A stretch of DNA of 64,000 nucleotides, taken from the NCBI GenBank assembly GCA_964619725.1, contig CAZUFC010000038.1:1-64000 (forward strand), in the 5' to 3' direction. The DNA comes from an uncultured bacterium (GTDB lineage Bacteria > CSSED10-310 > CAZUFC01). The notes beneath the pieces were generated by a model. It was given only the letters and a program-made list of their open reading frames with translations. It was not told the DNA's origin and ran no database searches. This document shows, one piece after another, positions 26,301 through 58,026 of the stretch (positions within the stretch are counted from its first letter, which is position 1; every line of letters begins with the position of its first letter). Made by a program: the position numbers and the translations under genes.

Positions 26301-27180
26301 TATCATAGTTTGGAGCGCCAACGATGACGTCGGCATATCCGTCCGCATTCACATCACCCGCCGATGCCGTCGAATAACCCAAATATTCATTATTCTGTTC
26401 TCCCTCGTATTCCCACAAAGGCGTCATTATCGGCGCCGTGTAACTCGGATCGATGAAAACCGGGTATTCGGCAGCCTGGTCCTCCAGCATGATCCTCAGC
26501 CGGTCCCTTTCAGCCCCGTAATCAAACCTGCATTCCAGTTCCGCACCGCCTGAATCAATTGTATAAAGATCGCTCGCCTGAAGAACGAGCCTCCCCCCGG
26601 TTTCATAAAAATTTATCGAATCGCCGGCCGGCGCTATTTCAAAAGTTAGATCGCCGGAAACCTTCATTTCAATCCAGAATGATTCCCCGGACGCTCCGGC
26701 AAGTCGCTCAACTATCGTGAATCCCTGCTCTAAACCGGAGTCGCTGTTTAAATACCACTCGGTCAACCCCGAACAATCATACTCCACACGATTGTCAAAC
26801 ACTGCAGGCGCTCCGCGAGTCAACGCATGAAATGACTTTCCCCGTCCGTATCCTTCAGGCGTCAATACGCATTTCCAGTCTTCCTCGCTTTTTCGTGACG
26901 TTATTACGATCCTGTCATCCATAAAATATGTCCGAAAATTATAAGCCCGGTTCGGCGCCTGGTAACTGGATTCAACTCCCTCAACAGGCGACCTGTCGCT
27001 CATGGTCACATTGTATTCGGATTCCACCAGATGCTTCTTCGCCATGCTCCACCATCCGTCGTTCAATGTCGCTGCTCCGTAATCTTTATTACTGTCGACC
27101 GTATCACCTGCGGCATGAACTGCTGACGCCAAACATGACGTTATCGCCAATAAGATTATTAAAAACTGAAATTTCCTCAT
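20389..27180 (-). CDS. Giant secreted protein: 14 FG-GAP repeats, Pro/Thr/Glu linker, CARDB and Ig/FN3-like domains, carboxypeptidase-regulatory-like domain, IPTL-CTERM-like tail
   Basis: Signal peptide; N-domain ending YPVFIDP; 14 G.SV..AGD.N.DGY.D..VGA repeats; PDL.V...V.ESNESNN (CARDB); C-terminus PIPVLGGYG-hydrophobic helix-YRRLR. Confidence 0.9.
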   Translation of the reverse strand: MRKFQFLIILLAITSCLASAVHAAGDTVDSNKDYGAATLNDGWWSMAKKHLVESEYNVTMSDRSPVEGVESSYQAPNRAYNFRTYFMDDRIVITSRKSEEDWKCVLTPEGYGRGKSFHALTRGAPAVFDNRVEYDCSGLTEWYLNSDSGLEQGFTIVERLAGASGESFWIEMKVSGDLTFEIAPAGDSINFYETGGRLVLQASDLYTIDSGGAELECRFDYGAERDRLRIMLEDQAAEYPVFIDPSYTAPIMTPLWEYEGEQNNEYLGYSTASAGDVNADGYADVIVGAPNYDTCSSNVGRVFVFHGSSAGPEQSPSWTKYGPRSGSRLGHSVNSAGDVNNDGYDDVIIGSISASCCAPGGEAYVYHGSASGLNTTAGWNYACSHWSAEFGYSLASAGDVNQDDYADVIVGAPLYDNDNSGRVYVFHGSASGLESSYNWDAEGGQYGERFGEAVSSAGDVDGDGYADVIVGAPGYSNCGEYGRVYVYKGSASGLYSTPFWTESCDEQGSEYGTAVSSAGDFRGDGCSDIIVGAKSYGCHAVGRVFYYNGRPTGIYPNRGFNGPRYGEFGSSLSYGRINDDNYDDIIVGMKAYNENEGAVFVFYGATFGLEYYFNPDCVAYGKRGVLEELGWSVGAGDFNGDGLDDIIAGSRLHSVNGNDNEGKATVYNASNFSQVWMKPIDNWHYEGPQEGEMLGFSIGSAGDVNADGYEDIVVGAPYYDICGWNVGRAFVFHGRRWGLNWNPSWSENGIEGHANFGYSVGTAGDVDNDGYDDVIIGASGSTNEHQGGAAYVYHGRSTGLDGMAYWIGWSDSYDADYGCSVSTAGDVNNDGYADVVVGARYGGNSDAGYAYGYHGSSSGLSYSPAWEAGNFESQERFGWSVSDAGDVNADGYADVIVGAPDYDSCGCGQVECGHAYVFHGTNSGLESSYSWRVSGDDPQGHCFFGNSVSTAGDVNADGYDDVVVGAKNYDNYGGAFAYLGSSSGLNSTPVWQDEGDEWYDYGYSVSSGNMNNDAYDDIIVGMQGYDNNNGAVFVYYGSSTGPETSPYCFVYGSNKEYLGAAVDSADVDEDDFDEVIVGAYGYDNYSSSGRVSYFKCLQPTPLASPTRSPITSPQPTATRTPFVTQGTTTQPTPPPTTAPTQEPSPEPTDIPTAEPTDVPTQEPTDIPTAEPTEIPTQEPTNIPTEAPTEIPTQEPSPEPTDIPTQEPTAEPTTEPSPEPTGTPTETPTFTHSPTPTAIGTSTPTPTPTDTPTPVPDLKVRSQDIDFDPSYPDEGEATTVTATVWNYGDAACGTFTVRIYADYGAGPVQIGSDHTAGPLNPGESDMVSETWTAACGAVISAEADIFDEVTESNESNNAGSRNAPIMYCPGSVTMSVIPETTEADIGEEVEYQIQISNGNLGIDTFDIEITGSLPSGWYEVSPDPLVLNAGQTNGATMTVNVPDECSSVGDYSFQAAATSLQMGDEYTDDGYLTVSTDIAVTQRNPANGTTTGSNDVTFNWHSSVPADSTLFYRELGAPAWTEASVGVDVMTHQTEIGGLERNATYEWYAELESVCGNTTTDTWTFTIGNGVVFTEDSYTFTVERDYDQHVWVGVHNEDDVAHTVELHIDNPNDELIVNFVGPGSEDETVNVSPGETRDVELVIHAQDVQGEGGSKVEVCFDDLMISLTADEAGAPITDAAPTTVCVTWPYIAFSLTEEGSDPVTEVKYCRVSNSGDALTDLSVNATDDLTGRVLFIPRIDHYRLENEDQIDFDVEPLFESGQPSLSGQIAATAAGEEVLLPLNFDCASPRSLWEVVVAAPELCYPMANWFCTNRPSISMSFEVSVNALAEIDTAVVYTTFQPRSGVRPHYVDILMNGNLIGELDDIVPSGTYGFAFDPGYLNVSPGGSASNTLSMVTQHFNGGHYVVSTNSLVVLTLEDMTLNVCAHSQTEADALAPDLPSMCAGYTFDLDPRVQSVTVLNMDEEPTSVFYPGETAKIRIRGENPHPFYSYNITYTLKVDTDGDTGTAEYDTHVTGEDWITTMEHNTDHFHTWHYTVPAGAPSIQFTVEAHETADYANCWDCPGWNWNFDVGGGITGYVREAGNSDPIEGASVSTNDGYADQDGTDENGYYEILRLPNRDYDVTAGAEGFAPQTVSGITVNGSILSGINFDLTTPTVTPTLTVTPTPTVTTTPTLSATPTLSPTPTLSSTPTISPTATSSPTEVPTDTPTEIPTMTPTSPTPTQSPTPTAPPIPVLGGYGALTLILTLGLIILGYRRLRSELNK

Positions 27181-30227: not shown

Positions 30228-30346
30228 CGTTTCGCCTATATTTTTATTGAGTTCTTTTCAGGATGTTTGTTGTTTATTGAGAGAAAGAGGAACATTTTTT
30301 GTTTTTAATATTATGCAATAAAACCAGTAAATGGAGGAGGATTAAG

Positions 30347-33300
30347 ATGAAGGATTCGAAGGTAGTAATTTTTCTGATGTATCTGGCCGTCGGCTGTTTA
30401 TTATCGGCGTCCGTGCAAGCTGCGACGGAAGTGACAGGGGACATAACAGGCAACACGAATTGGTCTTTAGGCGGCAGTCCCTATTGGGTCAGGGCAGTAG
30501 TGACCATTCAAAGCGGGGTGACGTTGACGATCGATCCGGGTGTAGTAGTGAAAATGGAAACGACGAACCCGTATAGCGGCGACAAGCGTCAATTGATCGT
30601 GAATGGAACGCTGAGTTTGCCTTCATCGGGATCACCGGTAATTTTCACGTCGGACCAGGACGATGACGCTGACGGAATCGACGTCACGGGAAACGGTTAT
30701 ACTGCGGGCAGTCCCGGTGAATGGGGTTATATTAAGTATAACTCATCAGGCAATTTTCTCCAGAACGCCGAGATTCGATATGGAGGCATAGGGAGAAAAA
30801 ATCACAATAATCCATATGATCTTTATCAGGTATGGGTCAACGGAGTAACGGTCCATATCCAGGACTGCGAATTAAGAGATTGCTATCAGACGGCAATATA
30901 TTATGTCGCTCCAGCGGGCCCCTCATCCCCTCTGATTGCTGATAACGTGATTACTGACTCTCCACAGGGAATAAATTTTGTAGCGCATGCCAACTTCCTG
31001 GCATCTCCGGATTTTAATGACAATAATGTAACTGCTGCGACGTTCGGCATAAAGGTTCAAGGGACGTCGAACGTCCCGCCTGTTGTAGACATGAACGGAA
31101 ACATAGTAACGAGTCCTGACGGAACGGGGATCGGAATTCATCTGATATATCCCGATGCTTCTTCTACTTTAATAAACAACAGCATAACGGGCGTTCAGTA
31201 TGGACTGGTGAACGACAACGGGTCTCCCACGGTAAACAACAACTCTTTTACGGCCAATACGGAGTTTCCTCTATCCCAGTTGAATACATCGTTTCCTAAT
31301 TACAGCGGCAATACGATAACGGGGAACGAAAAACAGGCGATAAGAGTCAACGGCACAATTTCTACTAACGGCGTATGGTCCATCATTCAGGGACTAGGCA
31401 TTCCCTACCACGTGGAAGACGGCAGTATAACGATTGAAAGCGGGGCAACGTTGACCGTCAATCCTGGCGTGGTTGTAAAATTCGAAACCACAAATCCTTA
31501 TACAGACGACAAGAATTCCATTCACATTCAAGGAACATTAGCGCTTCCGGCTTCGGGAAACCGCGTATACTTCACGTCTGACCGGGACGACTGGGTAGGG
31601 GGCGATTCCAACGGCGACGGAGCCCAGACAGCGCCGGCGCCCGGCGATTGGGGATATCTCAGGTATTATTCCGCCAATGTGTTGAGGAATTCGGAGGTCC
31701 GTTACGGCGGTATTGGAAGGAATAATCACAATAATCCGTATGACAGATATCTGGTTTGGATGGACAATGTAATAGTGAATATCGACAATTGTACGATTAA
31801 AGAGGCGTATGAAACCGGCGTTTATTATAACGTCTATCTGACGCCGGATTCATCGCCCGTCATATCGAACAATACCATCAGCGACACTCCTTACGGGATC
31901 GATATGATTTCTTCACAGAATTTTCATACGAATCCTACGTTGTCGAACAACACGATATCGTCGGAAACGATATGTTTTCGTCTGACCGGCGATGTCGACA
32001 TTCCGCCTGTTTTGACTTATACTGGGAATACGACCACCAGTGCGGCAGGAACGGGAACCGGCGTTTACCTGATATATCCGCACGCGAATTCAGCTTTGTC
32101 GGGCAACACCTTCGACGACAATCAATATGGTTTGATTGTGGACGACGGGTCTCCATCAGTAACGAATAATTCCTTCATCAATCAGACGGAATTTCCTTTA
32201 ACCCAGATTGATACTTCTTTCCCGTCGTATAGCGGAAATACGTTCACCGGTAATTACAAACAGGCCATTCGGGTCAATGGAACCATTTCGGAAAACGGAA
32301 CATGGCCTGATGTACAGAACTTGGGTTTACCCTATCATGTTGAGGACGGCTGCGTAACCATAGACGATGGAGTGACTTTGACCGTCAACAACGGCGTCGT
32401 CATAAAATTCGAACAAACTTATCCATATACAGGGGAATTAAATTCGATGCATATTTACGGAACTCTGGAATTGCCGGCATCTGGCGCATCCGTCTTCTTT
32501 ACTTCCGACAGGGACGATACGGTGGGCGGGGATTCCAACGGCGACGGCATGACTACGCTGCCGGCTGCAGGCGATTGGGGTTACTTGAGATATTACTCCG
32601 CTAATATCCTGATAAATTCAAAACTGCGCTACGGGGGCATTGGCAGGACCAATCATAATAATGCGTATGATAAATACATGGTATGGGCGGATAACGCAGA
32701 CGTCGACATCATCGACTGCGAATTGAAGCACGCATATTTAACCAGTATCTACTATTACGCGAGACTAACCCCTGCCCTGACGCCCCAAATCCTGAACAAC
32801 GACATATCTTTAACGCCCAACGGTATTTATATGACTACTTCGGAAGGTTACCTGACCGCTCCCAACATTGTTGAGAATACAATATCCGCGACTGATTTCG
32901 GCTTCAAGATGGAAGGCGACGTCGATATCCCGCCGCTGTTGTCTTTTACCGACAACTACATCACAAGTCCCGAAGGCACGGGAACAGGCGCGTGGCTGAT
33001 TTATCCGGATGACGGCACGACGCTCACCGACAATACATTCTATTTCGTCCATTATGGATTAGTCGTAGACAACGGTTCACCGACCCTGGGAGGCAACAGT
33101 TTCATTGAGAATCAGGAATTTCCGGTTTCTCAGATTAATACAAGTTTTCCGACATACAGCGACAATTTTTTCGTGGATAACGTGAAACAGGCGATTCGGG
33201 TAACGGGAACCATCTCATCCAGCGGAACCTGGCCTGACGTTCAGGGGCTGGGACTTCCCTATCACGTGGAAGACGGCAGCTTGACCATAGCGTCGGGAGC

Positions 33301-36300
33301 CGTCCTCAACGTGAATGCCGGCATAATAATAAAATGTGAAGCCACCTACCCTTATACCGGAAACAAAAATTCTATTTTAGTAGACGGCGTGTTCAACTCG
33401 CTCGGAACCGCCTGGGATAAGGTCTATATTACCTCCGACAGGGACGATACGATCGGCGGCGATTCCAACGGCGACGGAACTGCGACGAGTCCGGTCGGCG
33501 GCGACTGGGGTTACCTGAAAATCAATAATGGAAATAATGAACTGACGCATCTGCACATTCGTTACGGCGGCGTAGGACGTAATAATCACAATAATCCGTA
33601 TGATAGATACATGGTATGGATCGATAAAGAATCAATCGACATCAGGCATTGCACGATAAGCAACGCTTATGACAGGGGACTGTACTACGTGGCGGACGAT
33701 ACCGACGATTCGACCGTTAATTTGTATCACAATAAATTTTTGAATTCTCCATACGCTGTATATTTTTACGGTTGCTCTGTTTTTGAAACGGACACTCATA
33801 TAATCTACAATTACTTTGAAGCAGGACCAGGCAACACCAATCTTTATATAACGGAGGTTGCGGGCACGTCGACCGTGAATTACAATTCTTTCTTCAATAG
33901 CGCATACGGAATCTATGCAGATGGAGGAGTTGGAGCTTTTCACTTCGATAATTGCAACATAAGCAATAATTCGACTAACGGGGTCCGTAATGCAGAAGCG
34001 CCCTGCATAGTCGGCGACTATTGCTGGTGGGGACATTCGACGGGACCTTTCGACAACCAGACCGGGGCCGGCGCCTGCGACGGTACGAACGGCGGATCGG
34101 GAGACTCGGTTACCGAATATGTGGATTATCACGACTGGGTTTCGACGCCTATCCCTATCGGACTGCTGGATTGTTCGAATATGGCGAATATTCCGTGCAA
34201 TTCCGGTCTTCAATTCCAGACCAACGACGCCGGTCAGTCGGATGTCGACACATACGGATGTCATACTGAGGATTATTCAGGCAAAGAAATGGTCTACTAC
34301 GTAGATACGACTTCAACGGGAAGTCTCGTCGCTCACCTGAACCCAATTTACGGCGATCCGGACGTATTCATTCTCGATGCCTGCAGCGAAGAAAACTGCC
34401 TGGCTTACGGCGATTACGATGCCATATTGGCAAGCGTTACTCCGGGGAGGTACTACATCGTTGTTGACTGCGCTCAGGACCCGGCTTATTACGATATTTA
34501 CGTCTATTGCGGAGGCGCTACGCCGACTCATACAGCCACACCCTCTCCCCTTCCGACGAATACGCCGATTCCCCAACTGGATTGCTCATCACCTGTCCAT
34601 TTAAACTGCTGGACGCCCTATGCCGGAGACACAACAGGCGGCGATACGAACGTCTCGCAATATAATTGCGTAGGATTCGACTTTTCGGGTCCTGAAGTAG
34701 TCCATACTATAGATATCAGCGAGGATTATATGGATATTTCGTTAAGTTCAAGCGCCGCCTTATTCGTTATGGTTCTGGATGCTTGTAATGAGAACGCATG
34801 TATCGCTTTCGGCAATGGTAATTTCTCTGTGGAAGAGCTGACTGCAGGAATGTATTATTTAGTCGTCGACGGTATTATGGGCGCTGCAGGGACATATACG
34901 CTGGATGTACACTGCAATCCCGGGGGAACGCCTGCAGCGACGGCGACGCCCACGGCTACACCCACATTGTCGCCGACGACCGCAAGCACGTACACGCCGA
35001 CGCCGACGCCGACCTTGAGTCCCACTTCGACAATCAGTCATTCGCCCACCATAACGCCTACGTTTACGGCCATTCCAACGGAAACGCCTATACCTCAGAC
35101 CAACTGCGGTTGGAACGACGACTGGCAGGATTACGCCTGCGGACCTACGGGACTCAACGGCGAAGACTTCATCACCTTTTTCGTCGTTCATCAGACCTGC
35201 GACGTCACCATTTCAATCAATAACGTCACTCCGCAAAACTATGATCCCGTTCTGCTGCTGATGGACGGTCCCGGACCGGAATACTGCATAGCCTATGCCG
35301 ACGATCACGGTGAAGCCGAAGGTGAAACAATAACTATGGAGGCCATGGAGCCTGGATTCTACTACGCAGCAGTCGATTCTTACCAGGATTGCGGATTCTG
35401 GTACATTTCGCTTACTATGGACAATTGCCTGACTCCAACGCCGATACCGACTGAAACGCCGATACCGCAAACCAATTGCGGATGGTATGATGACTGGCAG
35501 AATTACGCCTGCGGTATGTTCGATCTTTTCGGTGAGGATTTTATCACGTTTTTCGTCGTCCAGCAGGTATGCGACGTAACCATCGCCATCGAGAACGTCA
35601 CTCCCGGCGATTACGATCCCGTTCTGCTCCTCCTTGACGGCCCTGATCCGCTCTATTGTTTCGCTTATGCCGATGACAACGGCGCGGGAGCAGGAGAAAG
35701 CATTACCGTCCCAGGCATGGAACCGGGCAACTACTATGCTGTGGTAGACTCGGAAGAGGATTGCGGATACTGGAATCTTTCTTATTCCCTCAATAATTGC
35801 CTGACCCCTACACCGTCACCGACGCCCCCCGACACCCCCACGCCGAATCCTCAAACCAACTGCGGATGGCTCGATGATTACCAGGATTACGGATGCGGCA
35901 TCTCCGGACTCAATGGAGAAGACCTGGGTATAGTTTTTAATAACTACCAGTACTGCGACATTACCATCGAGATCGAAAACGTCACTCCTGGAGATTACGA
36001 TCCCATACTGCTCATCATGGACGGGCCGGGACCTGAAGACTGCTTCATCTACGCCGACGAAAACGGCGATGCCCAGGGCGAAACCATTATGATTACCGGT
36101 CTGGAACCCGGAACTTACTATGCAGTCGTTGATTCCTATGAAAGTTGCGGATATTTTAACTTCCGAGTCACCTATGACAACTGTCAACCCTACTCGCCTA
36201 CGCCGACACTAACGCCGACACAGGTCCTTACGCCGACCAGCGTCCCCACTCATGTCTGCTCCACAATTCTGGTCCCGCAGGATCACCAGACGATACAGGA

Positions 36301-37558
36301 AGCCATTCATGCCGCGCTCGATTGCGATACTGTGCTGATAGACGATGGAACCTACACAGGCGATAGGAATAAAAACCTTGATCTCATGGGCAAGGCGATA
36401 ACCCTCACGTCGGTCAACGGACGGGAAAACTGCATCATAGATTGTGAGAATGACGGCAGAGGCTTCATTATATTCAGGGGGGAAGGGAACGATTCAATCA
36501 TCAGCGGTCTCACTGTCCAAAACTGCAACGCCACATACGGAGCAGGCATTTACATTCAGAATTCATCCCCTGCCATTCTGGAATGTACAGTGAAATCGTG
36601 CACTTGCGATTCCGACGGCAGCGGTATTTACTGCTCCAATACATCCTCGCCGGTCATCACGGATTGCATCATCACGGAAAATTCTGCCGGCGGTATGGGC
36701 GGAGGGCTCTACTGCAGGGATTTCTCCAATCCGACCATTACGAATACCGACATAACCTTGAACTCAGCCGAATTCGGCGGCGGCATCGAGAGCTACAGCG
36801 CTTCCCCGCACCTGATCGAATGCAATATAAGCGAAAACTACGGCGTTCACAACGGCGGCATCTTTTTCGACATCGGAGCCGGCTGCGTACTGGAAAATTG
36901 CACCATCGCTTATAACTCCTCCATTGATCAGGGCGGAGGATTGCACATCATAAGCGATAACCCCGAAGCCCTCATTAAAAATTGCCTCATTATCGGCAAC
37001 GAAACCCAAAACTACGGAGGCGGCGTCGAGTGTTGGTATTCCTCTCCCACTTTCCTCAATTGCACTTTTACTGAAAATAGCGCACAGTTGAACGCAGGTG
37101 CCCTTAATTGCATGAATGCATCCCCGACAGTCAAAAATTGCATTTTCTGGAACAATTTTCCCAATGAAGTCGAAACTTCAGGGCAATCCGACATTGATAT
37201 GACTTATTCTAACGTGCAGGGAGGATTCGAAGGCGAAGGAAATATGAATCAGGACCCCATGTTCGTAGACCCGGTAAACGGTGATTATCATCTTCAGTCC
37301 ACTGTAGGAAGTTATCACAACGGGACATGGGAAACGGACGAAAACTGCTCCCCCTGCATAGACGCCGGAAACCCCGGGGATGCCTGCGACTGCGAACCAC
37401 TGCCGAATGGAGGCATCATCAATATAGGCGCTTACGGTAATACCGAACAGGCCTCAAATGCTTGTTCCAGAGATATCCCGACTCTTTCCCTGTTCGGTAT
37501 CCTTTTGCTTGTCCTGACGATCGGATTCCTGACCATGAAAAAAGGCAACAAAATGTAA
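30347..37558 (+). CDS. Giant secreted right-handed beta-helix repeat protein with PPC-like Cys-containing domains, a Pmp-like beta-helix and an IPTL-CTERM tail
   Basis: GGAGGAGG before ATG 30347; signal peptide; four modules with TSD.DD..GGDSNGDG...GDWGY and YGG.GR.NHNN.YD; Thr/Pro linkers; TIQEAI...GTY.G..N, SPCIDAG, INIGAYG; C-terminus DIPTLSLFG-hydrophobic helix-KKGNKM. Confidence 0.9.
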   Translation: MKDSKVVIFLMYLAVGCLLSASVQAATEVTGDITGNTNWSLGGSPYWVRAVVTIQSGVTLTIDPGVVVKMETTNPYSGDKRQLIVNGTLSLPSSGSPVIFTSDQDDDADGIDVTGNGYTAGSPGEWGYIKYNSSGNFLQNAEIRYGGIGRKNHNNPYDLYQVWVNGVTVHIQDCELRDCYQTAIYYVAPAGPSSPLIADNVITDSPQGINFVAHANFLASPDFNDNNVTAATFGIKVQGTSNVPPVVDMNGNIVTSPDGTGIGIHLIYPDASSTLINNSITGVQYGLVNDNGSPTVNNNSFTANTEFPLSQLNTSFPNYSGNTITGNEKQAIRVNGTISTNGVWSIIQGLGIPYHVEDGSITIESGATLTVNPGVVVKFETTNPYTDDKNSIHIQGTLALPASGNRVYFTSDRDDWVGGDSNGDGAQTAPAPGDWGYLRYYSANVLRNSEVRYGGIGRNNHNNPYDRYLVWMDNVIVNIDNCTIKEAYETGVYYNVYLTPDSSPVISNNTISDTPYGIDMISSQNFHTNPTLSNNTISSETICFRLTGDVDIPPVLTYTGNTTTSAAGTGTGVYLIYPHANSALSGNTFDDNQYGLIVDDGSPSVTNNSFINQTEFPLTQIDTSFPSYSGNTFTGNYKQAIRVNGTISENGTWPDVQNLGLPYHVEDGCVTIDDGVTLTVNNGVVIKFEQTYPYTGELNSMHIYGTLELPASGASVFFTSDRDDTVGGDSNGDGMTTLPAAGDWGYLRYYSANILINSKLRYGGIGRTNHNNAYDKYMVWADNADVDIIDCELKHAYLTSIYYYARLTPALTPQILNNDISLTPNGIYMTTSEGYLTAPNIVENTISATDFGFKMEGDVDIPPLLSFTDNYITSPEGTGTGAWLIYPDDGTTLTDNTFYFVHYGLVVDNGSPTLGGNSFIENQEFPVSQINTSFPTYSDNFFVDNVKQAIRVTGTISSSGTWPDVQGLGLPYHVEDGSLTIASGAVLNVNAGIIIKCEATYPYTGNKNSILVDGVFNSLGTAWDKVYITSDRDDTIGGDSNGDGTATSPVGGDWGYLKINNGNNELTHLHIRYGGVGRNNHNNPYDRYMVWIDKESIDIRHCTISNAYDRGLYYVADDTDDSTVNLYHNKFLNSPYAVYFYGCSVFETDTHIIYNYFEAGPGNTNLYITEVAGTSTVNYNSFFNSAYGIYADGGVGAFHFDNCNISNNSTNGVRNAEAPCIVGDYCWWGHSTGPFDNQTGAGACDGTNGGSGDSVTEYVDYHDWVSTPIPIGLLDCSNMANIPCNSGLQFQTNDAGQSDVDTYGCHTEDYSGKEMVYYVDTTSTGSLVAHLNPIYGDPDVFILDACSEENCLAYGDYDAILASVTPGRYYIVVDCAQDPAYYDIYVYCGGATPTHTATPSPLPTNTPIPQLDCSSPVHLNCWTPYAGDTTGGDTNVSQYNCVGFDFSGPEVVHTIDISEDYMDISLSSSAALFVMVLDACNENACIAFGNGNFSVEELTAGMYYLVVDGIMGAAGTYTLDVHCNPGGTPAATATPTATPTLSPTTASTYTPTPTPTLSPTSTISHSPTITPTFTAIPTETPIPQTNCGWNDDWQDYACGPTGLNGEDFITFFVVHQTCDVTISINNVTPQNYDPVLLLMDGPGPEYCIAYADDHGEAEGETITMEAMEPGFYYAAVDSYQDCGFWYISLTMDNCLTPTPIPTETPIPQTNCGWYDDWQNYACGMFDLFGEDFITFFVVQQVCDVTIAIENVTPGDYDPVLLLLDGPDPLYCFAYADDNGAGAGESITVPGMEPGNYYAVVDSEEDCGYWNLSYSLNNCLTPTPSPTPPDTPTPNPQTNCGWLDDYQDYGCGISGLNGEDLGIVFNNYQYCDITIEIENVTPGDYDPILLIMDGPGPEDCFIYADENGDAQGETIMITGLEPGTYYAVVDSYESCGYFNFRVTYDNCQPYSPTPTLTPTQVLTPTSVPTHVCSTILVPQDHQTIQEAIHAALDCDTVLIDDGTYTGDRNKNLDLMGKAITLTSVNGRENCIIDCENDGRGFIIFRGEGNDSIISGLTVQNCNATYGAGIYIQNSSPAILECTVKSCTCDSDGSGIYCSNTSSPVITDCIITENSAGGMGGGLYCRDFSNPTITNTDITLNSAEFGGGIESYSASPHLIECNISENYGVHNGGIFFDIGAGCVLENCTIAYNSSIDQGGGLHIISDNPEALIKNCLIIGNETQNYGGGVECWYSSPTFLNCTFTENSAQLNAGALNCMNASPTVKNCIFWNNFPNEVETSGQSDIDMTYSNVQGGFEGEGNMNQDPMFVDPVNGDYHLQSTVGSYHNGTWETDENCSPCIDAGNPGDACDCEPLPNGGIINIGAYGNTEQASNACSRDIPTLSLFGILLLVLTIGFLTMKKGNKM

Positions 37559-49251: not shown

Positions 49252-49335
49252 GCTCGTTCCTCAAGCAATAGCGGGAATTGAGCCTCAAGAGAGATTTCTC
49301 CTTATGTTGCGATTCCCGCTTTGCTGAGGACGAGC
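49252..49335. terminator. Long imperfect hairpin between convergent genes
   Basis: GCTCGTTCCTCAAGCAATAGCGGGAATTG pairs with CGATTCCCGCTTTGCTGAGGACGAGC; bracketed by TTGATCAAAA (49214) and TGATCAGCCC (49341). Confidence 0.55.
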
Positions 49336-49387: not shown

Positions 49388-49807
49388 TCACAGACAGTCG
49401 CAGGGCGGCGTGCTGAAAAGACTCAACTTGATCGGAAGATATCGTTCCTCTGCATTGACCTGCAATCCGCATTTCTGAAAGTGAAAAGTCATATCGTCCA
49501 CATCAAAATCAACATAAATGTGATAGCAGCCCGGAGAAAGCCATAAAGAATAGTATCCCTCTTCGTCGCACCAAACCTCTTTTTTCTTTATGCAAAAAAT
49601 ATCTTCCACCGTTACCTTGACCTTGACGTCCTGAAGAGGATTGCCGTTGGGCCAGAATATATACCCTACTATATTGCTCGATCCGGGATCGGTATAGGAA
49701 TCGAATGATTCTCCGCCCGCTTCGACCATTGCGCCGCTCAACAGGAACAAAACGACCGCCGTCGTTAATATGCTGAAAATTGAATTCAGCCGTTTGCACG
49801 TTTTCAT
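49388..49807 (-). CDS. Small secreted Cys-rich protein (carboxypeptidase-regulatory/transthyretin-like fold candidate)
   Basis: AAGGAGG before ATG 49807; signal peptide; I.G.I...NG.PL..V.V...DEEGYY.L.L.PG.Y; ends PPCDCL. Confidence 0.75.
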   Translation of the reverse strand: MKTCKRLNSIFSILTTAVVLFLLSGAMVEAGGESFDSYTDPGSSNIVGYIFWPNGNPLQDVKVKVTVEDIFCIKKKEVWCDEEGYYSLWLSPGCYHIYVDFDVDDMTFHFQKCGLQVNAEERYLPIKLSLFSTPPCDCL

Positions 49808-49872
49808 GTTTGCCTCCTTTGATGAAACGTCTTGAATGGTGAGAATTGCGTCGACGCCCGATGCAAAGAAGG

Positions 49873-49887
49873 GCAATTTTTGTGCCA
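49873..49887 (-). promoter_or_regulatory. sigma-54 -24/-12 promoter for the 49807 gene
   Basis: Minus strand TGGCAC-AAAAA-TTGC, exact consensus spacing. Confidence 0.85.
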
Positions 49888-49978
49888 TATTCAGGATGAT
49901 GCTGTGTTTCCGCTCTCAAATTGAACCTTTAAAAGGAAAGGCGGAACCCGCGTCATGCCGTCAATCTATACCCGCGTC

Positions 49979-50029
49979 TCGCCGGAAACGGCGAAAATTA
50001 TTCGTCTTTTTCGCTGGAATCGGCGAAAA
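49979..50029. promoter_or_regulatory. Two palindromic candidate upstream activator sites
   Basis: TCGCCG-GAAA-CGGCGAAAA (49979-97) and TTTTCGCTG-GAAT-CGGCGAAAA (50008-29), centres 32 bp apart. Confidence 0.6.
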
Positions 50030-51668
50030 GATTGAGGGCTTTTACAAGATATCTGATCCTGTTTTCGGGAACGTTCAGCAGTCTGGCGGCTTTACTTTTG
50101 TTTCCGTTGGAATGGTTGAGGGCTTGAAGAAGGAGTTCAGTTTTAAATTGTCTTATTTTTTCATCGAAGGAGCAGGGTAAGTCGAAGTGAGGAGCCGGTG
50201 ATTGTGGTGGAGTGTTCGTAGATTGATCGTTCGTGAGTTGTCTGGGGAAGTCGGCGGGTTCGATGGGGCCGGATTGTTTTTGTGAGAGGATGACTATTTC
50301 ATCGACGAAGTGCTGTAGTTCTCTGACGTTTCCGGGCCAGGGGTATCGGATGAGTGAGTAGAGAGTCTGGTGCGAGAAGGGTCCGAGATTTTTCCCGAAT
50401 TTAATATTGGCTTTATTGAGGAAGTAGACGGCGAGGAGAGGTATATCGTCTGTTCTGTGTCTGAGCGGTGGTATTTTAATGGTAACCTGGTTCAGTCGGT
50501 AGAGGAGGTCTTCTCTGAAGGAAGAATCATTGCAGGCAATTTTAAGGTTGACGTTGGCGGCGGCGATGATCTGGACATCGACGTTTACGTCATTAAGGCT
50601 GCCGATGGGACGGAATTTGCCTTCCTGCAGGCATCGCAGGAGTTTAGCCTGTGCCGGGAGGGTCATGCTTGCTATTTCATCCAGGAAGAGGACGCCTTTA
50701 TCGGCCTGTTCGAAGACGCCTTTGTGATTGGAGAAGGCGCCGGTGAAAGCGCCTCTGGCATATCCGAAGAGGGCGCTGTCGATGAGAGTATCGGGATAGG
50801 AAGCGCAGTTTATGGGGACGAAGGGGCCGGAGCGTCTTGAACCTTTCTGGTGGATCATGGCTGCGACGATTTCCTTGCCGGTACCTGTTTCTCCTTCAAT
50901 GAGAACATTAGCCTGGGCCTGGGCGACCTGGTCGATTTTTCGGCGAACTTCGCATAAAGCCTGTGAATTGCCGATCAGGTCATAAGTCTGCTCTTTTGCT
51001 GAAGCTTTTTCCTTGAGCGCTGCATTTTCACGGTCCAGAATGTCGTAAATTCTGCTGTTTTGGATAGCCAGAGAAGATTGAGCCGCGATTTTTCTGATCA
51101 GGCGCAGGTGTTTCTCATTAAGGACCGGTTTGCTATGATCGAGGTAAATAACGCCAATAGGGCGTTCGCCGGAATACAAGGGAAAACAAACGATGCTGAG
51201 CGCTCCAATATTTCTCAGGCTTCTGGAGCTCCAATCGCTTTCGAGTATATTTTTCATCAGCAGACCGTCGGGAGACTGGAGCGCTCTCCTGACGGCTCTG
51301 CGGCTGATCCTGTTGTCGGGATATTCGATGATTTCGCCTTCTCCCGTTTTGGCGAAACGAAAATCGTATTCGCCGTCTGCGCCCAGAAGCAGGATGAAAC
51401 CTCGTTCCGCTCCGGTATATTTCAAGGCGACATCCAGAATATCCGATAATTTTTTATCCAGGGGAGACAGCTCGCCCAGCGACAGCAGAATGTCGTTGAA
51501 CTGATCGTCTGTCTCATCGTGCAAATCTTTTCTTTCAACCTTTACCTCATCCGGAATGCCTTCCGGATCGCGAAGCCGCCGGTTGTCTTCTTCGAGCTGA
51601 TCGACTTTATCGATCAACATACGAATCAGGCTCTCGATCTCTTCCGGACTACGGGTTGAATAATTCAT
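49998..51668 (-). CDS. GAF-domain sigma-54-dependent transcriptional activator (EBP, Fis-type HTH)
   Basis: AERGFI...SIVCFPL...IGVIYLD (GAF); GETGTGKE, GAFTGA, LFLDEI, FREDLLYRL, WPGNVREL, GNKSKAARLL. Confidence 0.95.
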   Translation of the reverse strand: MNYSTRSPEEIESLIRMLIDKVDQLEEDNRRLRDPEGIPDEVKVERKDLHDETDDQFNDILLSLGELSPLDKKLSDILDVALKYTGAERGFILLLGADGEYDFRFAKTGEGEIIEYPDNRISRRAVRRALQSPDGLLMKNILESDWSSRSLRNIGALSIVCFPLYSGERPIGVIYLDHSKPVLNEKHLRLIRKIAAQSSLAIQNSRIYDILDRENAALKEKASAKEQTYDLIGNSQALCEVRRKIDQVAQAQANVLIEGETGTGKEIVAAMIHQKGSRRSGPFVPINCASYPDTLIDSALFGYARGAFTGAFSNHKGVFEQADKGVLFLDEIASMTLPAQAKLLRCLQEGKFRPIGSLNDVNVDVQIIAAANVNLKIACNDSSFREDLLYRLNQVTIKIPPLRHRTDDIPLLAVYFLNKANIKFGKNLGPFSHQTLYSLIRYPWPGNVRELQHFVDEIVILSQKQSGPIEPADFPRQLTNDQSTNTPPQSPAPHFDLPCSFDEKIRQFKTELLLQALNHSNGNKSKAARLLNVPENRIRYLVKALNLFADSSEKDE

Positions 51669-52098
51669 TGTCGAAAGACTGCTCAGTCTGATCGCAGATT
51701 AAAAAACCATAGTCTTCGTCATAGCATATCTGAATATCGGAATAGTCCCGGACGGCCATTTCAATAATCCATTCTCCGACGATCCGGCCGTCCAACTGCA
51801 AACCTACTGTCAATTCATATTCTCCCAATTTCCCCATCGGCTCGGAAAGCAACCAACGCCTGCATGAAAAAGGATCGCTTCCGCCCGGTCCCGATGCCGC
51901 TATGATGATGATCGGGTCTTCCTGCTGCTTGGTTATCAGCTCGCAGCGACTGTATTCGGGCGTTGAGAAAGGATTCTCAATCACCAGTCGATACTGGGGA
52001 TAATCGTTCCCGCCGTGTGCTGTCGACCAGGACATAACGATCATTCCAACTGCGAAAATGCAGCAAATCACCTTAAGGCTCGCTTTGTCGTACCTCAT
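51649..52098 (-). CDS. Small secreted acidic Cys-containing hypothetical protein
   Basis: AGGAGG before ATG; signal peptide ending STAHG; 3' end overlaps the EBP start by 20 nt. Confidence 0.7.
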   Translation of the reverse strand: MRYDKASLKVICCIFAVGMIVMSWSTAHGGNDYPQYRLVIENPFSTPEYSRCELITKQQEDPIIIIAASGPGGSDPFSCRRWLLSEPMGKLGEYELTVGLQLDGRIVGEWIIEMAVRDYSDIQICYDEDYGFLICDQTEQSFDNELFNP

Positions 52099-52153
52099 TG
52101 TTTAACCTCCTGTGTTGAATTTCTCATTTAAAATCAATTCCACAGAACTAAAA

Positions 52154-52168
52154 GCAATTTCAGGGCCA
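52154..52168 (-). promoter_or_regulatory. sigma-54 -24/-12 promoter for the 52098 gene (and probably the EBP)
   Basis: Minus strand TGGC-CCTGAAA-TTGC with correct spacing; AT-rich tract upstream. Confidence 0.7.
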
Positions 52169-52194
52169 ATTTGTTTTTTTGTTAATAGTCTCAA

Positions 52195-55100
52195 TCATTT
52201 GTCCGTTTTATCGGTTCGACATTTTTCAGAATCATTCCCGGCGTTCGCTGAATTCGGCGAAAAATCCGGCCCCGGACTTATGCCCGCTATCTCCTCCATG
52301 CGCTCTATCAAACCGCGGTCCAAAGATTCGTATAAGCTGCTCAGCCTGGAGGAAGAGGAAGCATCCAGCCAGGATTTCAGTTCATCACCGCATATCTCTG
52401 ATGTTTTTATAATATCTTCCAGTCGCTTCGTCAACTTTATGAAATGAGCGTTATGCAGTCGGCGGGCTGTTTTTAAGGCATGAACGAGAAATTGGGCTGC
52501 TTCTAAACGTTCTTGAGCGAAAAGAAGGATTTTCGCGGCGGTAAGATCATGCCAGAACAAGACATAAGGGTCTCTGGAATTGGTTTTTAAAGAATGAGCC
52601 CTGGAGAATTCTTTAAGACTGCCGGTAATGTTGCCGGTTTTCAGCAGAATCAGGCGATTCAGAATACTGAGCATCAAGAGTGGTGATTGATCCAGCTCAT
52701 TGAAATCGTTTGCCCCAAGATAGTTTTTTAAGAGTTTCAGGGCATCTTTTATTTCTTGCAAGGAATCGAGTTGGACAGACATGAGTCCCTGGAAAGTCGA
52801 AGCTTTAATGAGAAAATTCAGTGAATAGCAATGGGATGGAATCCAGGGTATTTTTTTATTAAGAACGGCCTTCAGGAGGGCGGCTGCCGGTTTGTTTTTT
52901 CTCTGGGCGTGGAGTGATCGAGCCTGCAGCAGGAGGTTTTCCAGCGCGACGGAGAAATTACCGAGTCTTTTGGAAGAGCGGAAGCCCCACCGTGAGTAGA
53001 GAAGGGCCTGATCTGTTCGTCCCAGGAAGAGGGCGCAATATCCTGTATTGCAGGCGCAACTGCCCAGGTCCATGGAGGTCCCGGAGAAGTGAATAACTTT
53101 TAAAGCTCTTCGATAGTATTTCAGGGCTTCGGCAAAATTTCCCCTGTTTTGCATGACGGCTCCGATATTTATTAAAGCCTTGCCTTGAAGAGAAAAACTG
53201 CCGACTTTTTTCGCCATTCCGTAGGCTTTCCGGTACAATGGAAGCGCTTTTTCAATATCGCCTTCAAACAGGCGGCAACTGCCGCGATTCAAAGTAGGAG
53301 CGAATTGCAATTTAAAGCTTCCATGTTCTTTGTGCGAATTCAAAGCTGCGGCATAGGCTTTTTCCGCTGAATGAAAATCGGAATTAGAAAGGTAAAAGTT
53401 GCCCAGGAGTTCCAGGAGCATTCCTTTCGTTTCAGGAGGACAGGGATCGGAGCGATTTTGATTTTTTAAGAGCCTCAAACCTTTGAGTGCGAAATATTTA
53501 ACTCTTTTTGCCCGGGGATTGCGGTTCCATTTCCGGCGCGCCATTTCCTTGTAAAACAAAGGCGCGGTTTTTTTGAATCCGGGGTCGCGTTTATATTGAA
53601 GCAAAGTTTTTTCAGCCTTGTCCGCTTCGCCGTTCAACTCAAGGATATAAGCGGCCTGGGAGTATGCTTCAAAACGGTCCCAGCTTGATAAAGAGCGAAT
53701 ATTACTGCTTCGCAGGAGCGACAAAAAAACATTTTTTGCCGCTTCGAGACGTCCGGTCTGCTTCAGCGTTTCTCCGTATTTCAACGAGATATAAGCCTGA
53801 GCTTTTTTCTTTTCTTCGGCGCTTTCCAGGTATTGCACAATATGCTGAAGCCTGAGAAAAACCTCTTTTATGCGCCGCGGATTCGCTGTCCTGTTCATCC
53901 GCTGCATGAGACCGGCGCCTTCTTTGACCGCTTCCCGGATTCTCCCGGCCCCGCTCAGCAGCCGGAAACGCATATCTTCCGGAAAATCATCATGGAGATT
54001 CCACTTATCCCATAAATTCAGTTTTTCATTGAACCATTTATGAAGATGCTCCTGGTCGAAGCTCTGACGAATTAACATATCGAGTTCGGGAGGCCAGGCT
54101 TGAATGTAATGTCCGGAAACAGAAACAAACGGTGTTTTCGAAAGCACAGACAGCGTTTTTTCAATAAATTCATCGGAAAAGGATAGAAAAGCATTCATGG
54201 CGGATATGTCGATTTTGACTGAAAACAATGAGAGTGTCAGGAGAATTTCCATTTCAACTTCCGTGAAATCCCGGAGTCTTTCCAGGAGAATATCGTAAAA
54301 AGGAAATGAAACGACGCCGGCGGGCGATGCCTTTGAGTTTCCCGGCAGGCGGCTGTGAACAGCGGAGGCCGGCTCAAGGAATTCGACGGCGTTGGCATCA
54401 GTTGCCGGCCGTTTCTTTTTCTCCGTGTATTTTCTTTCGATCATCGCTTTCTGCAGAGATAGAGGCGCTAATGCGCAACAGCTTTTAAAGGGGATCAACA
54501 GATGATGCTGAAATAAGGAGTATAGAAGCAGCATCAGGTTTTTCTTTCGTCCGGCGGCGATTGAGTTTAGAAAATTACGCAATTCGCCGGGCATGGATCG
54601 AACATTAAGAATATCGTCAATGGAACTTTGTGAAGGATCAAACCCGGTTTCTTGCATTTCATGGGTCTGAATATGGAACCTGGCATTATTTTTCATGGTG
54701 GTTAGAGGATTACTGTCGATTATGTTTTCCATCTTTGATTCTGAAGGTATTGATAAAATGAGCCACAGGCGTTTTTTAACGGACTGCGGAAGCGTCAGGT
54801 GTCCGATCAGCATGTTGAAAAGTCGTCGATCCCTTTCAATCTCATAATTAAGCTCGATAACGACAGTCTTTTCGGAAGCCATATCCAGCAGGCGCCGACA
54901 TTGTTGCTCCAGTTCATTGTCGTTCTGTGATACATTTTTTCGCAATTTGAAGTACTTGAAACCTTCGGAAGCGTCCAATCGACTGAAAAATATACGGTGC
55001 AGCGTCAGCTCAGGAGGAGATGCGTTGACTGAGTTTCGGATAATGAAAATCGAAGGTATTCCATCCTCCACTCTAAGAAGTCCGGCGTTCAATTTACTCT

Positions 55101-55998
55101 GCAGCTCTGAAGTCTGCTTTTCGGAAAGTTCGGCATATTCCGGATCGCTTTTTGAACTCGTCAGAGCATACAACAAGCGGCGATAATCGTCCCGGGAATG
55201 AAGTTCATGCTCGCTCAGCGTTCCGCTGCTCTGAAAATTAAGTATATGCCATTTCAATAATCCGGAGACCCTGCCGGCGATTTCTTCCAATGTGATGCTT
55301 CTTCTGGTTTTGTCAGGCATGATCATCTTTTCGATTAACCCATGCACTACTCCACGAGCTTTTTCATCAGCAATGTCTATCTCACTGACAAGGTTCTTCA
55401 GCGTGATCCCCAGGCTGTATATGTCCGCTGACTCATCCGGGGTTTCGCCTGCCGATATCTCGGGCGCTACGTATCCGGGTGTGCCTCTGATGACGGGCGG
55501 AAAGTTTTTGAACGCTGAAAAACCGAAGTCGACGAGCTTTAATCCAAATATGTCGCCTGACTTTTTGATCAACATGTTTGCGGGTGTGACGTCGAGGTGA
55601 AGGATATTCTCTGAATGCAGCAGAGTCAGCGCAGAACAGATTTGAAGTAGTAATTGGTAAAGGGTTTTCGGAGAGATGATGTTATTCGCTGCGGCTTTAT
55701 CCAGGCTCATCGAGTCATAGTATTCCATCAGCAGCCAGGCGTTCCTGTCTTCGTCCTGAACAAATTCGTATACCCGGATAATGTTCGGATGATTAATGTC
55801 GACGAGTGACCTGTAAAGCAGCGACATATTTGCAACGTGACCGGACAGCTCTTTATTGCTGAAAGTGAGACGCTTAAGGACGGCAGGCCGCTTGAATTTC
55901 CGGTCATGAACACGCAATATCCCGCCTTCTCCGCCTTGTTTCAGTTTGCGTATCAGGCGGAACCGCTCGCAGATGCCGTATTTGTCGTTTAGTTTCAT
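52195..55998 (-). CDS. Ser/Thr protein kinase with long helical middle region and TPR repeats
   Basis: GGEG, AVLKR, HPNII, HLDVTPAN, VDFG, GTPGYVAPE, DIYSLG; TPRs such as ALINIGAVMQNRGNFAEALKYYRRAL; no clear Walker A in the middle region. Confidence 0.85.
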   Translation of the reverse strand: MKLNDKYGICERFRLIRKLKQGGEGGILRVHDRKFKRPAVLKRLTFSNKELSGHVANMSLLYRSLVDINHPNIIRVYEFVQDEDRNAWLLMEYYDSMSLDKAAANNIISPKTLYQLLLQICSALTLLHSENILHLDVTPANMLIKKSGDIFGLKLVDFGFSAFKNFPPVIRGTPGYVAPEISAGETPDESADIYSLGITLKNLVSEIDIADEKARGVVHGLIEKMIMPDKTRRSITLEEIAGRVSGLLKWHILNFQSSGTLSEHELHSRDDYRRLLYALTSSKSDPEYAELSEKQTSELQSKLNAGLLRVEDGIPSIFIIRNSVNASPPELTLHRIFFSRLDASEGFKYFKLRKNVSQNDNELEQQCRRLLDMASEKTVVIELNYEIERDRRLFNMLIGHLTLPQSVKKRLWLILSIPSESKMENIIDSNPLTTMKNNARFHIQTHEMQETGFDPSQSSIDDILNVRSMPGELRNFLNSIAAGRKKNLMLLLYSLFQHHLLIPFKSCCALAPLSLQKAMIERKYTEKKKRPATDANAVEFLEPASAVHSRLPGNSKASPAGVVSFPFYDILLERLRDFTEVEMEILLTLSLFSVKIDISAMNAFLSFSDEFIEKTLSVLSKTPFVSVSGHYIQAWPPELDMLIRQSFDQEHLHKWFNEKLNLWDKWNLHDDFPEDMRFRLLSGAGRIREAVKEGAGLMQRMNRTANPRRIKEVFLRLQHIVQYLESAEEKKKAQAYISLKYGETLKQTGRLEAAKNVFLSLLRSSNIRSLSSWDRFEAYSQAAYILELNGEADKAEKTLLQYKRDPGFKKTAPLFYKEMARRKWNRNPRAKRVKYFALKGLRLLKNQNRSDPCPPETKGMLLELLGNFYLSNSDFHSAEKAYAAALNSHKEHGSFKLQFAPTLNRGSCRLFEGDIEKALPLYRKAYGMAKKVGSFSLQGKALINIGAVMQNRGNFAEALKYYRRALKVIHFSGTSMDLGSCACNTGYCALFLGRTDQALLYSRWGFRSSKRLGNFSVALENLLLQARSLHAQRKNKPAAALLKAVLNKKIPWIPSHCYSLNFLIKASTFQGLMSVQLDSLQEIKDALKLLKNYLGANDFNELDQSPLLMLSILNRLILLKTGNITGSLKEFSRAHSLKTNSRDPYVLFWHDLTAAKILLFAQERLEAAQFLVHALKTARRLHNAHFIKLTKRLEDIIKTSEICGDELKSWLDASSSSRLSSLYESLDRGLIERMEEIAGISPGPDFSPNSANAGNDSEKCRTDKTDK
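52244..52264. promoter_or_regulatory. Palindromic candidate upstream activator site
   Basis: TTCGCTG-AATT-CGGCGAAAAA, same motif as 49979/50008, inside the kinase 3' end. Confidence 0.55.
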
Positions 55999-56147: not shown

Positions 56148-56301
56148 GGCATTGATCAAAAAAGAATCTTTTGAGGTTACAATTCGAAAGAACCTCCCGT
56201 CATTTTGTTTCGACCCCGACCCCGATTCCGATACCGCTTCCGATACTGAAACAAAATGTAAAAAGTTATGGAAGAAGTGTAATCCGGGTTTGATCAGTCC
56301 C
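56148..56301. mobile_element. MITE-like palindromic element copy D (best preserved)
   Basis: GGCATTGATCAAA...GAGGTTACAATT...CATTTTGTTTC-(CCGAYH hexamers)-GAAACAAAATG...AAGTGTAATCC...TTTGATCAGTCCC; flanks tttctttc / cttctttc. Confidence 0.75.
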
Positions 56302-57800: not shown

Positions 57801-58026
57801 GGCATTGATCAAAAATGGGACTTTTGAGTTTACGAATTTCGCCGCCTGCAATAATTAAAAAGTGCATTGATCAAAAATTACATCTTTTAAGTTTACAATT
57901 CGACAGGATAGCCCGTCAATATTGTTTCGATTGCGATCCCGATACCGATACCGATATCGACCCCGATTAATGAAACGAACTGTCAAAAGTTTTGAAAGAG
58001 GTGTAACCCCCCGGTTGATCTGTCCC
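57801..58026. mobile_element. MITE-like palindromic element copy E with duplicated left end
   Basis: GGCATTGATCAAAA at 57801 and TGCATTGATCAAAA at 57863; CGATCCCGATACCGATACCGATATCGACCCCGATT loop; right end TTGATCTGTCCC. Confidence 0.7.

Follow-up and report, generated by a model that had tools for sequence, protein, structure and literature searches.

The window analysed here is a 64,000-nucleotide (nt) stretch of DNA from an uncultured bacterium of the lineage CSSED10-310; CAZUFC01 (assembly GCA_964619725.1, contig CAZUFC010000038.1, positions 1 to 64,000 of the forward strand). On its minus strand, between 49388 and 55998, lie four genes with no opposite-strand gene in between: a gene for a kinase-like protein with tetratricopeptide repeats (the kinase-TPR gene), a small open reading frame (ORF A), a gene for a sigma-54 activator of the enhancer-binding protein (EBP) class, and a second small ORF (ORF B). 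This locus is probably (at roughly 60%) a lineage-specific two-gene version of the Pkinase-STAND-TPR-GAF-sigma54 AAA+-HTH regulators that are abundant in its phylum, in which the activator half would drive its own gene and two genes for small, putatively secreted proteins.

In the proposed circuit, dimers of the EBP would bind an 18-base-pair (bp) palindrome, TTCGC-N8-GCGAA, at one site before promoter A and at two sites before promoter B, and would spend ATP to open sigma-54 holoenzyme complexes at both of these -24/-12 promoters. Promoter A would yield protein A together with the EBP, the latter through translational coupling across a 20-nt overlap, which amounts to positive autoregulation, and promoter B would yield the secreted protein B. 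Transcription reading through from the kinase-TPR gene would probably supply basal EBP, as no terminator is seen there. The kinase-TPR half is predicted to be cytoplasmic and, if it acts at all, would most likely do so through its TPR part, as a scaffold or sensor that influences the EBP by protein contact and not by phosphorylation. Palindrome binding, sigma-54 dependence, autoactivation and coupling of the kinase-TPR protein to the EBP are all predictions from the sequence.

Promoters, palindromes and the activator

Promoter A (TGGCCC-tgaaa-TTGCt, 52154..52168, minus strand) begins 27 nt past the stop codon of the kinase-TPR gene and stands 56 nt ahead of the ATG of ORF A. Promoter B (TGGCAC-aaaaa-TTGCc, 49873..49887, minus strand) stands 66 nt ahead of the ATG of ORF B. 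An earlier note, made from the letters of this DNA, had reported four genes with sigma-54 promoters and palindromes here, and each of these elements was found in its place. The pattern TGGC-N7-TTGC has two matches in the 64-kb window, both on the minus strand, and these are promoters A and B. Each is one mismatch from the 16-mer TGGCAC-N5-TTGCW, which is used as the sigma-54 promoter consensus. The evidence for the promoters is their placement and not their count, as each lies ahead of a start codon preceded by a Shine-Dalgarno (SD) sequence and together they bracket the EBP gene. No further sigma-54-like site with up to two mismatches was found on the minus strand of the region.

The palindromes beside the promoters comprise two exact copies of TTCGC-N8-GCGAA and one copy with a single mismatch. 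Palindrome A (TTCGCCGAATTCAGCGAA on the minus strand, 52244..52261) is exact and falls in the 3'-terminal part of the kinase-TPR coding sequence. Palindrome B1 (TTCGCCGATTCCAGCGAA on the minus strand, 50010..50027) is also exact and lies within the 3' end of the EBP gene, and palindrome B2 (TTCGCCGTTTCCGGCGAG on the minus strand, 49978..49995), which has the one mismatch, starts 3 nt past the EBP stop codon. Upstream distances, taken from the site centre to the -12 element (the GC in promoter A), are about 98 bp for palindrome A and, at promoter B, about 145 bp for B1 and 113 bp for B2, which are spaced 32 bp apart. These distances are in the usual enhancer range for sigma-54 activators. Relative to the promoters themselves, the 18-bp palindrome occurs 85-132 bp upstream. 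The three sites have TTTTCGCCG in common, which is present in 5 copies in the window against 1.5 expected (1 of 100 shuffles reaches 5). Palindrome B1 is additionally one arm of a detected inverted repeat, and palindrome A was also found in a general palindrome scan. The likeness of the two regulatory regions is limited to about 38 nt around the palindrome, where the extended palindrome is identical at 18 of 20 positions. No IHF consensus was found between the palindromes and the promoters.

The pairing of palindrome and promoter is confined to this locus. The 9.17-Mb assembly contains 173 promoter patterns and 27 exact palindromes, and promoters A and B are the only correctly oriented patterns genome-wide with a palindrome 30-400 nt upstream; by arithmetic from the two genome-wide counts, about 0.19 such cases are expected. 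It is thus fair to call the circuit self-contained, as the earlier note did. The genome encodes RpoN (C28:648-2075; TIGR02395, 453.9 bits against a cut-off of 277.35) and holds 37 sigma-54 activator loci and at least 29 kinase-domain high-scoring segment pairs (HSPs). A strong sigma-54 16-mer is present within 3 kb of 7 of the 37 EBP AAA+ loci of the genome, and two such 16-mers are present only at this locus.

The EBP gene (51668..49998, minus strand; 556 amino acids (aa)) has no SD sequence of its own, and its start shares 20 nt with the end of ORF A (52098..51649, minus strand; 149 aa), which is preceded by AGGAGG 8 nt ahead of its ATG. In a scan for terminator-like sites, the minus strand had none between the four genes. 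With the EBP gene overlapping ORF A behind promoter A and no terminator intervening, autoactivation is the natural reading, and the proposal that the EBP is probably transcribed from a promoter that it activates stands as a prediction. ORF B (49388..49807, minus strand) has a mechanical start at 49888 that falls within promoter B; its likely true start is the ATG at 49807, which has AGGAGG 5-6 nt upstream and gives a product of 139 aa.

Judged by its domains and motifs, the EBP is a bona fide GAF-type activator and not a NorR, NifA or FhlA equivalog. The protein matches Sigma54_activat (PF00158) at 217.5 bits against a cut-off of 20.2, AAA_lid_14 at 76.5 bits, GAF_2 at 45.4 bits and, at its C-terminus, HTH_8 at 29.9 bits against a cut-off of 22. 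Its motifs are intact, with Walker A (GETGTGKE) at residue 259 and GAFTGA at residue 306, and a Walker B motif (LFLDEI) is visible in the translation. Its scores lie under the NCBIfam equivalog cut-offs for NorR (322.9 against 476), NifA (316.9 against 528.85) and FhlA (260.6 against 830).

A probable split counterpart of fused regulators

The domains spread over the kinase-TPR and EBP genes occur elsewhere in single polypeptides, as the earlier note had stated. The same genome encodes a fused 1769-aa Pkinase-AAA_16-TPR-GAF-Sigma54_activat-HTH_8 protein (C3:101017-106326), and such proteins are common in the phylum. The searched set has only 13 other genomes of the same phylum and none more closely related than that, and frames of fused size (1500-1800 aa, with an EBP match) are present in 7 of these 13 (G001, G003, G004, G005, G007, G008 and G011). 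One fused relative was confirmed by Pfam, and a fused 1874-aa metagenome protein (P0012) was also found. On contig C47 the genome has a second split pair, in which a 1191-aa Pkinase-AAA_16-TPR gene is followed after a 17-nt gap by a GAF-EBP gene of 546 aa. In each of the two split EBPs, the N-terminus aligns to the stretch of the fused proteins that covers the last TPR, the linker and the GAF domain. The genes thus stand in the order of the fused domains, with the cut at the TPR/GAF linker. The idea of a module split in two is upheld in this gene order and in the second split pair; the kinase half calls for one correction, as it has no detectable AAA_16 domain.

A Pkinase-AAA_16-TPR gene also occurs alone in this genome, on contig C108, where it encodes 1185 aa; no GAF-EBP is fused to it or next to it. 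A sigma-54-like 16-mer (TGGCGCTTATTTTGCT, L006 at about 6760, plus strand) is divergent from this gene, and an EBP of the response-regulator type is found at a distance of 3.4 kb.

The kinase-TPR gene (55998..52195, minus strand; 1267 aa in the list of open reading frames) encodes a degenerate Hanks-type kinase at residues 15-211, a unique middle region at about 230-850, a TPR region at about 860-1045 and a low-complexity tail. Pfam recognizes Pkinase (113 bits, above the cut-off) and TPR_12 (52 bits). TPR_MalT scores 33 bits, under its cut-off of 45, and the paralogs score 61-116 bits with it. With a maximum KD19 of 1.44 the protein has no membrane segment and is predicted to be cytoplasmic. 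In an alignment with nine relatives, its kinase domain has Leu in place of the alpha-C Glu that all nine others carry, and Thr in place of the catalytic-loop Lys (Lys in seven relatives, Asn in two). A deletion of about 24 aa in the C-lobe is seen in none of the nine. The beta-3 Lys and the DFG and APE motifs are retained. Unlike its paralogs, which carry GxGKT/S, the protein has no Pfam match to AAA_16 and no G....GK[ST] Walker A motif anywhere. Searched against 5.8e9 proteins, the middle 620 residues and the non-kinase part gave only generic TPR matches and no ortholog. Given the missing kinase residues and the lack of Walker A, phosphorylation of the EBP by the kinase, which the earlier note implied, is doubtful. 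With the STAND P-loop and key kinase residues lost, a scaffold or sensor role of the TPR part is the option that remains and, if the protein acts at all, would be the most likely one. A degenerate kinase was also seen in a fused protein. The 1729-aa protein of locus L022 (G003:C98) lacks the beta-3 Lys and has NAG replacing DFG, so that kinase decay is not confined to the split form.

The same losses raise the question of whether the kinase-TPR gene takes part at all. The EBP might act alone as a GAF-sensing one-component regulator of A and B, beside a kinase-TPR gene that is a decaying relic or an unrelated neighbour. Besides the damaged kinase, the absent Walker A and the undetectable STAND region, this explanation can draw on the codon score of the kinase-TPR gene (0.171), the lowest among the four and about one standard deviation under the gene mean, and on the relatives, in which GAF-EBPs of 520-640 aa also occur with no large ORF upstream of them. 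It is nonetheless rather unlikely. The kinase-TPR frame is intact over 1267 aa, and its low codon score is still gene-like, exceeding the 5th percentile (0.135) of real genes. The TPR repeats continue to score, the gene order is that of the fused domains and a second split pair exists in the genome. Furthermore, palindrome A lies within the 3' end of the kinase-TPR gene, whose stop codon is only 27 nt from promoter A.

The fused relatives also bear on the wiring of the two-gene version. Fused loci with a downstream flank (14 loci, all of one phylum) were scanned for a combination of three features. The first is a sigma-54-like 16-mer in which GG and GC are fixed and no more than two mismatches are allowed, the second an ORF of at least 40 aa that has an SD sequence and begins 15-220 nt past the 16-mer, and the third a hydrophobic N-terminus of the product of that ORF. 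All three are present directly downstream and on the same strand at 6 of the 14 loci (L008, L010, L011, L036, L025 and L030), or at 4 of 12 independent loci if the congeneric pairs of genomes G003 and G008 are counted once. The signal-peptide ORFs behind these promoters encode 85 aa beside the fused gene of the genome's own contig C3, 66 aa at G008:C59 and G003:C54, 344 aa at G003:C34, 346 aa at G008:C174 and 359 aa at G007:C20, the last product being a homolog of the 344-aa protein. Five of the six downstream sites have at most one mismatch, a class of site that numbers 76 in 18.3 Mb of strand in the genome studied here. The two congeneric 66-aa loci (L010 and L011) are identical at 248 of 383 intergenic positions, with a perfect 19-nt block across the promoter. 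In the 344/359-aa group (L036, L025 and L030, from two families), the palindrome ATTACA-N5-TGTAAT directly follows the activator stop codon. None of the secreted products of the relatives matches a Pfam family.

The plan of the relatives is that of the EBP stop codon, palindromes B1 and B2, promoter B and ORF B, so that ORF B looks like the ordinary output of the family. Promoter A and ORF A, between the two halves and ahead of the EBP gene, are the peculiarity of this locus. The earlier note knew of no described system with this layout. That statement is only half right. Among the papers covered by the full-text search, supplements aside, none was found on kinase-EBP fusions or splits nor on targets of such regulators, and passages of PMC3696898 and PMC11032199 contain nothing on such fusions or splits. 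The plan of activator, palindrome, promoter and secreted-protein gene, however, recurs beside fused relatives in this phylum.

Two further features were observed around the fused regulator on contig C3 of the same genome. Downstream of the fused gene and the 85-aa ORF lies a gene for a 293-aa EBP-like AAA+ protein (L004:6463-7344, minus strand), which has 24% identity to the EBP core by tblastn and retains Walker A; no GAFTGA, N-terminal sensor or HTH was seen in its translation by eye. It may be a truncated activator or an anti-activator that shares a transcript with the secreted peptide. On the other side, about 2.8 kb ahead of the fused gene, a sigma-54-like 16-mer (TGGTACATATTTTGCT, L004 at about 16141, plus strand), with the palindrome ACGAAATTTCGT just before it, stands upstream of a 191-aa Cys-rich ORF whose product looks cytoplasmic.

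Proteins A and B and the strength of the proposed circuit

The earlier note described the outputs of the circuit as two small secreted Cys proteins, and two small Cys-containing proteins with signal-like N-termini are indeed encoded. ORFs A and B both begin with basic residues followed by a hydrophobic, signal-like stretch (KD19 of 2.0 and 2.3), with putative cleavage, read by eye, after AHG in A and after VEA in B. The mature parts contain 4 Cys in A and 6 Cys in B, and both proteins are predicted to be exported. Their codon scores (0.234 bits/codon for A and 0.289 for B) are the best of the six frames in each case and exceed the off-frame 95th percentile of 0.226. Both fall within the range of 668 reference windows from long genes (mean 0.275, standard deviation 0.098). 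A and B are taken as real, lineage-restricted genes (ORFans) on these sequence properties.

No relatives of either protein are evident. Neither has a Pfam or NCBIfam family above the cut-off, a word-indexed search of 5.8e9 proteins returned only A and B themselves, and a HMMER search of 1.84e9 representatives with A returned only A. The two have no paralogs in the genome, no likeness to each other and no resemblance to the secreted ORFs downstream of the relatives. In 60 other genomes there was no match to A and one doubtful match to B (41 aa, E 9.8e-4, within a 904-aa frame). Protein B may be a CarboxypepD_reg-like (transthyretin-like) beta-sandwich, to which three weak and concordant pointers lead, none of them significant: a match to CarboxypepD_reg (PF13620) with E 0.019 and 15.7 bits, below the cut-off of 32.3; Atlas feature matches of 0.92-0.93 to CarboxypepD_reg and NOMO1-like clusters; and PDB sequence matches to carboxypeptidase M and NOMO2 with E 0.8-1.1. 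The best Atlas match of protein A reaches only 0.88 (DUF5300), which makes it a mere lead. Plant-ferredoxin-like proteins were also considered for A; the PDB matches are weak (E 0.14-1.1), and this candidate was rejected because the Cys spacing, as read, does not fit the 2Fe-2S motif.

A more elaborate version of the circuit is an autoinduction loop, in which exported protein A, or a fragment of it, would be sensed by the cytoplasmic TPR protein, which would in turn release or assemble the EBP for the production of more A and more EBP. This would give a bistable switch for signalling between cells or to the cell itself, with B as the effector. Such a loop would be functionally like the RNPP peptide signalling of Firmicutes. 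It is an unlikely extension of the scheme. If it were true, the small, fast-evolving secreted peptides beside the fused relatives would be cognate signals of a large and unstudied family of TPR receptors.

Several results weigh against the proposed two-gene circuit. The number of promoter patterns in the window is that expected by chance (mean 2.1, with 61 of 100 shuffles reaching 2). A relaxed scan of the genome, with 76 16-mers and 544 palindromes each of up to one mismatch, gave three palindrome-promoter pairs where about 1.7 are expected genome-wide; each of the three lies at this locus, and they are convincing only through this location. The genome bin is 91% complete with 6.5% contamination, so that statements that a feature occurs only here are valid for the assembled part. 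Palindrome B2 could alternatively be an RNA hairpin that ends the EBP message. A downstream promoter with a signal-peptide ORF was found neither at the other 8 of the 14 fused loci nor at the split pair on C47. In a tree of 69 EBP cores, the EBP is on a long branch (1.52) at an unresolved fork with the other split EBP, and neither a supported set nor a supported fused clade contains it; an origin by fission is thus plausible and not established. The middle region of the kinase-TPR protein has no detectable relation to the STAND region of the paralogs (hhalign probability 0.25, E 0.24). As A and B are without homologs, no conservation supports them as genes, and their single-sequence AF2 models are unusable (pLDDT 35.4 for A and 43.7 for B). 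Lastly, the locus is contained in four DNA sequencing runs, labelled microbial mat metagenome and all from a single study, and no RNA runs are listed for it.

The chance-level promoter count, together with the lack of homologs of A and B in the databases searched and structure models of no confidence, would fit a reading in which the regulatory motifs are coincidental or serve another purpose (with B2 as an RNA hairpin) and A, B or both are not genes. This is very improbable. Both promoters are correctly oriented, 56 and 66 nt before SD-preceded ORFs that flank the EBP gene, and the extended palindrome found 85-132 nt upstream of each is nowhere else so placed in 9.17 Mb. Additionally, A and B score like real genes in codon usage, each with a higher value in its own frame than in the other five, and related regulators have this layout next to them as well.

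The four-gene block is flanked on the other strand by a radical-SAM gene and a methyltransferase gene on one side and an M20 peptidase gene on the other, and is therefore physically self-contained. A weak terminator-like hairpin with a T-run (49252..49266, minus strand), 122 nt past the ORF B stop codon, is a possible end of the block; it is a consensus match only, from a scan that gave 14 terminator-like sites against 9.2 expected. A sigma-70 scan was at chance level (7 sites against 8.6 expected), and the promoter of the kinase-TPR gene was thus not located. No Rfam family was found in the window. Contigs from the sequencing runs are identical to the window wherever they overlap it, so there are no variants for a test of selection or polymorphism.

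In the intergenic region upstream of the kinase-TPR gene (56180-56300) lies a dispersed repeat of about 120 nt with a REP/MITE-like look. With blastn-short it gave 207 HSPs (80-95% identity) spread over many contigs of this genome, which ties contig C38, the source of the window, to the rest of the bin. An Asp/Pro/Thr-coding stretch near 57930-57990 is similar to this repeat, by eye in the ORF translations. Two giant ORFs are also present in the window, at 20389-27180 (minus strand, 2263 aa) and 30299-37558 (plus strand, 2419 aa).

The locus among known systems

Several phyla that have been little studied are rich in giant kinase-STAND-TPR-GAF-sigma54 regulators. If read correctly, the present locus is a compact natural dissection of such a regulator, in which the activator half is a separate protein of 556 aa and the predicted regulon does not reach beyond the locus. 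A span of 2.4 kb takes in the predicted sites and both target promoters, and this compactness makes the wiring of the family directly testable in a heterologous host. The predicted co-transcription of the activator with a secreted product offers a chance to test for switch-like behaviour. The sensor half suggests that catalytic modules can decay while the TPR part and the reading frame persist. The locus would thus be of value as a small model, open to experiment, for a family of regulators that has not been studied.

The closest known systems are the fused Pkinase-AAA_16(STAND)-TPR-GAF-Sigma54_activat-HTH_8 proteins (such as those of C3 and G003:C54, and P0012), whose domain order is the gene order here and whose GAF-AAA+-HTH output is intact in the EBP. 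They share with this locus an adjoining palindrome, a sigma-54-type promoter and a signal-peptide ORF. Two features that define the fused family, a single polypeptide and a STAND NTPase with Walker A, were not found at this locus. The chain here is instead cut at the TPR/GAF linker with a promoter and a secreted-protein gene between the halves, the activator is predicted to be co-transcribed with that gene, and neither the STAND P-loop nor key kinase residues have been kept. What appears to be new, as far as the sequence can tell, is the split itself, the secreted-protein gene between the halves and its likely co-transcription with the activator, and the decay of the kinase half.

The EBP shares the GAF, AAA+ (GAFTGA) and HTH_8 architecture of NifA, NorR and FhlA. 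GAF-type EBPs of this kind use palindromic sites about 100-150 bp upstream of a -24/-12 promoter, and the palindromes here match this arrangement. To our knowledge TTCGC-N8-GCGAA has not been described for NifA, NorR or FhlA, and the predicted targets here are two ORFan secreted proteins rather than metabolic operons. In the NifL-NifA and PspA-PspF systems, the EBP is under the control of a partner protein. The adjacent non-DNA-binding protein could likewise control the activator by contact at this locus. However, there is no sequence relation to NifL or PspA, the partner here is a kinase-like TPR protein, and its binding to the EBP is only proposed.

In the ZraPSR system of enterobacteria, upstream sites are shared between the EBP's own operon and the gene for a small exported protein, and the EBP activates both. 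This EBP, ZraR, is a response regulator controlled by a histidine kinase in the membrane, and feedback comes from ZraP in the periplasm. The proposed circuit is similar in that the EBP would activate itself and an exported protein, whereas its candidate sensor is a predicted cytoplasmic protein and its outputs bear no relation to those of ZraPSR. MalT and AfsR are STAND-TPR transcription factors, and PknK is a kinase-STAND fusion. The kinase-TPR protein appears to share with this group a MalT-type TPR sensor region, though with a score (33 bits) under the cut-off given above. It differs from them in that the NTPase is undetectable and the output is a sigma-54 AAA+ activator encoded by a separate gene.

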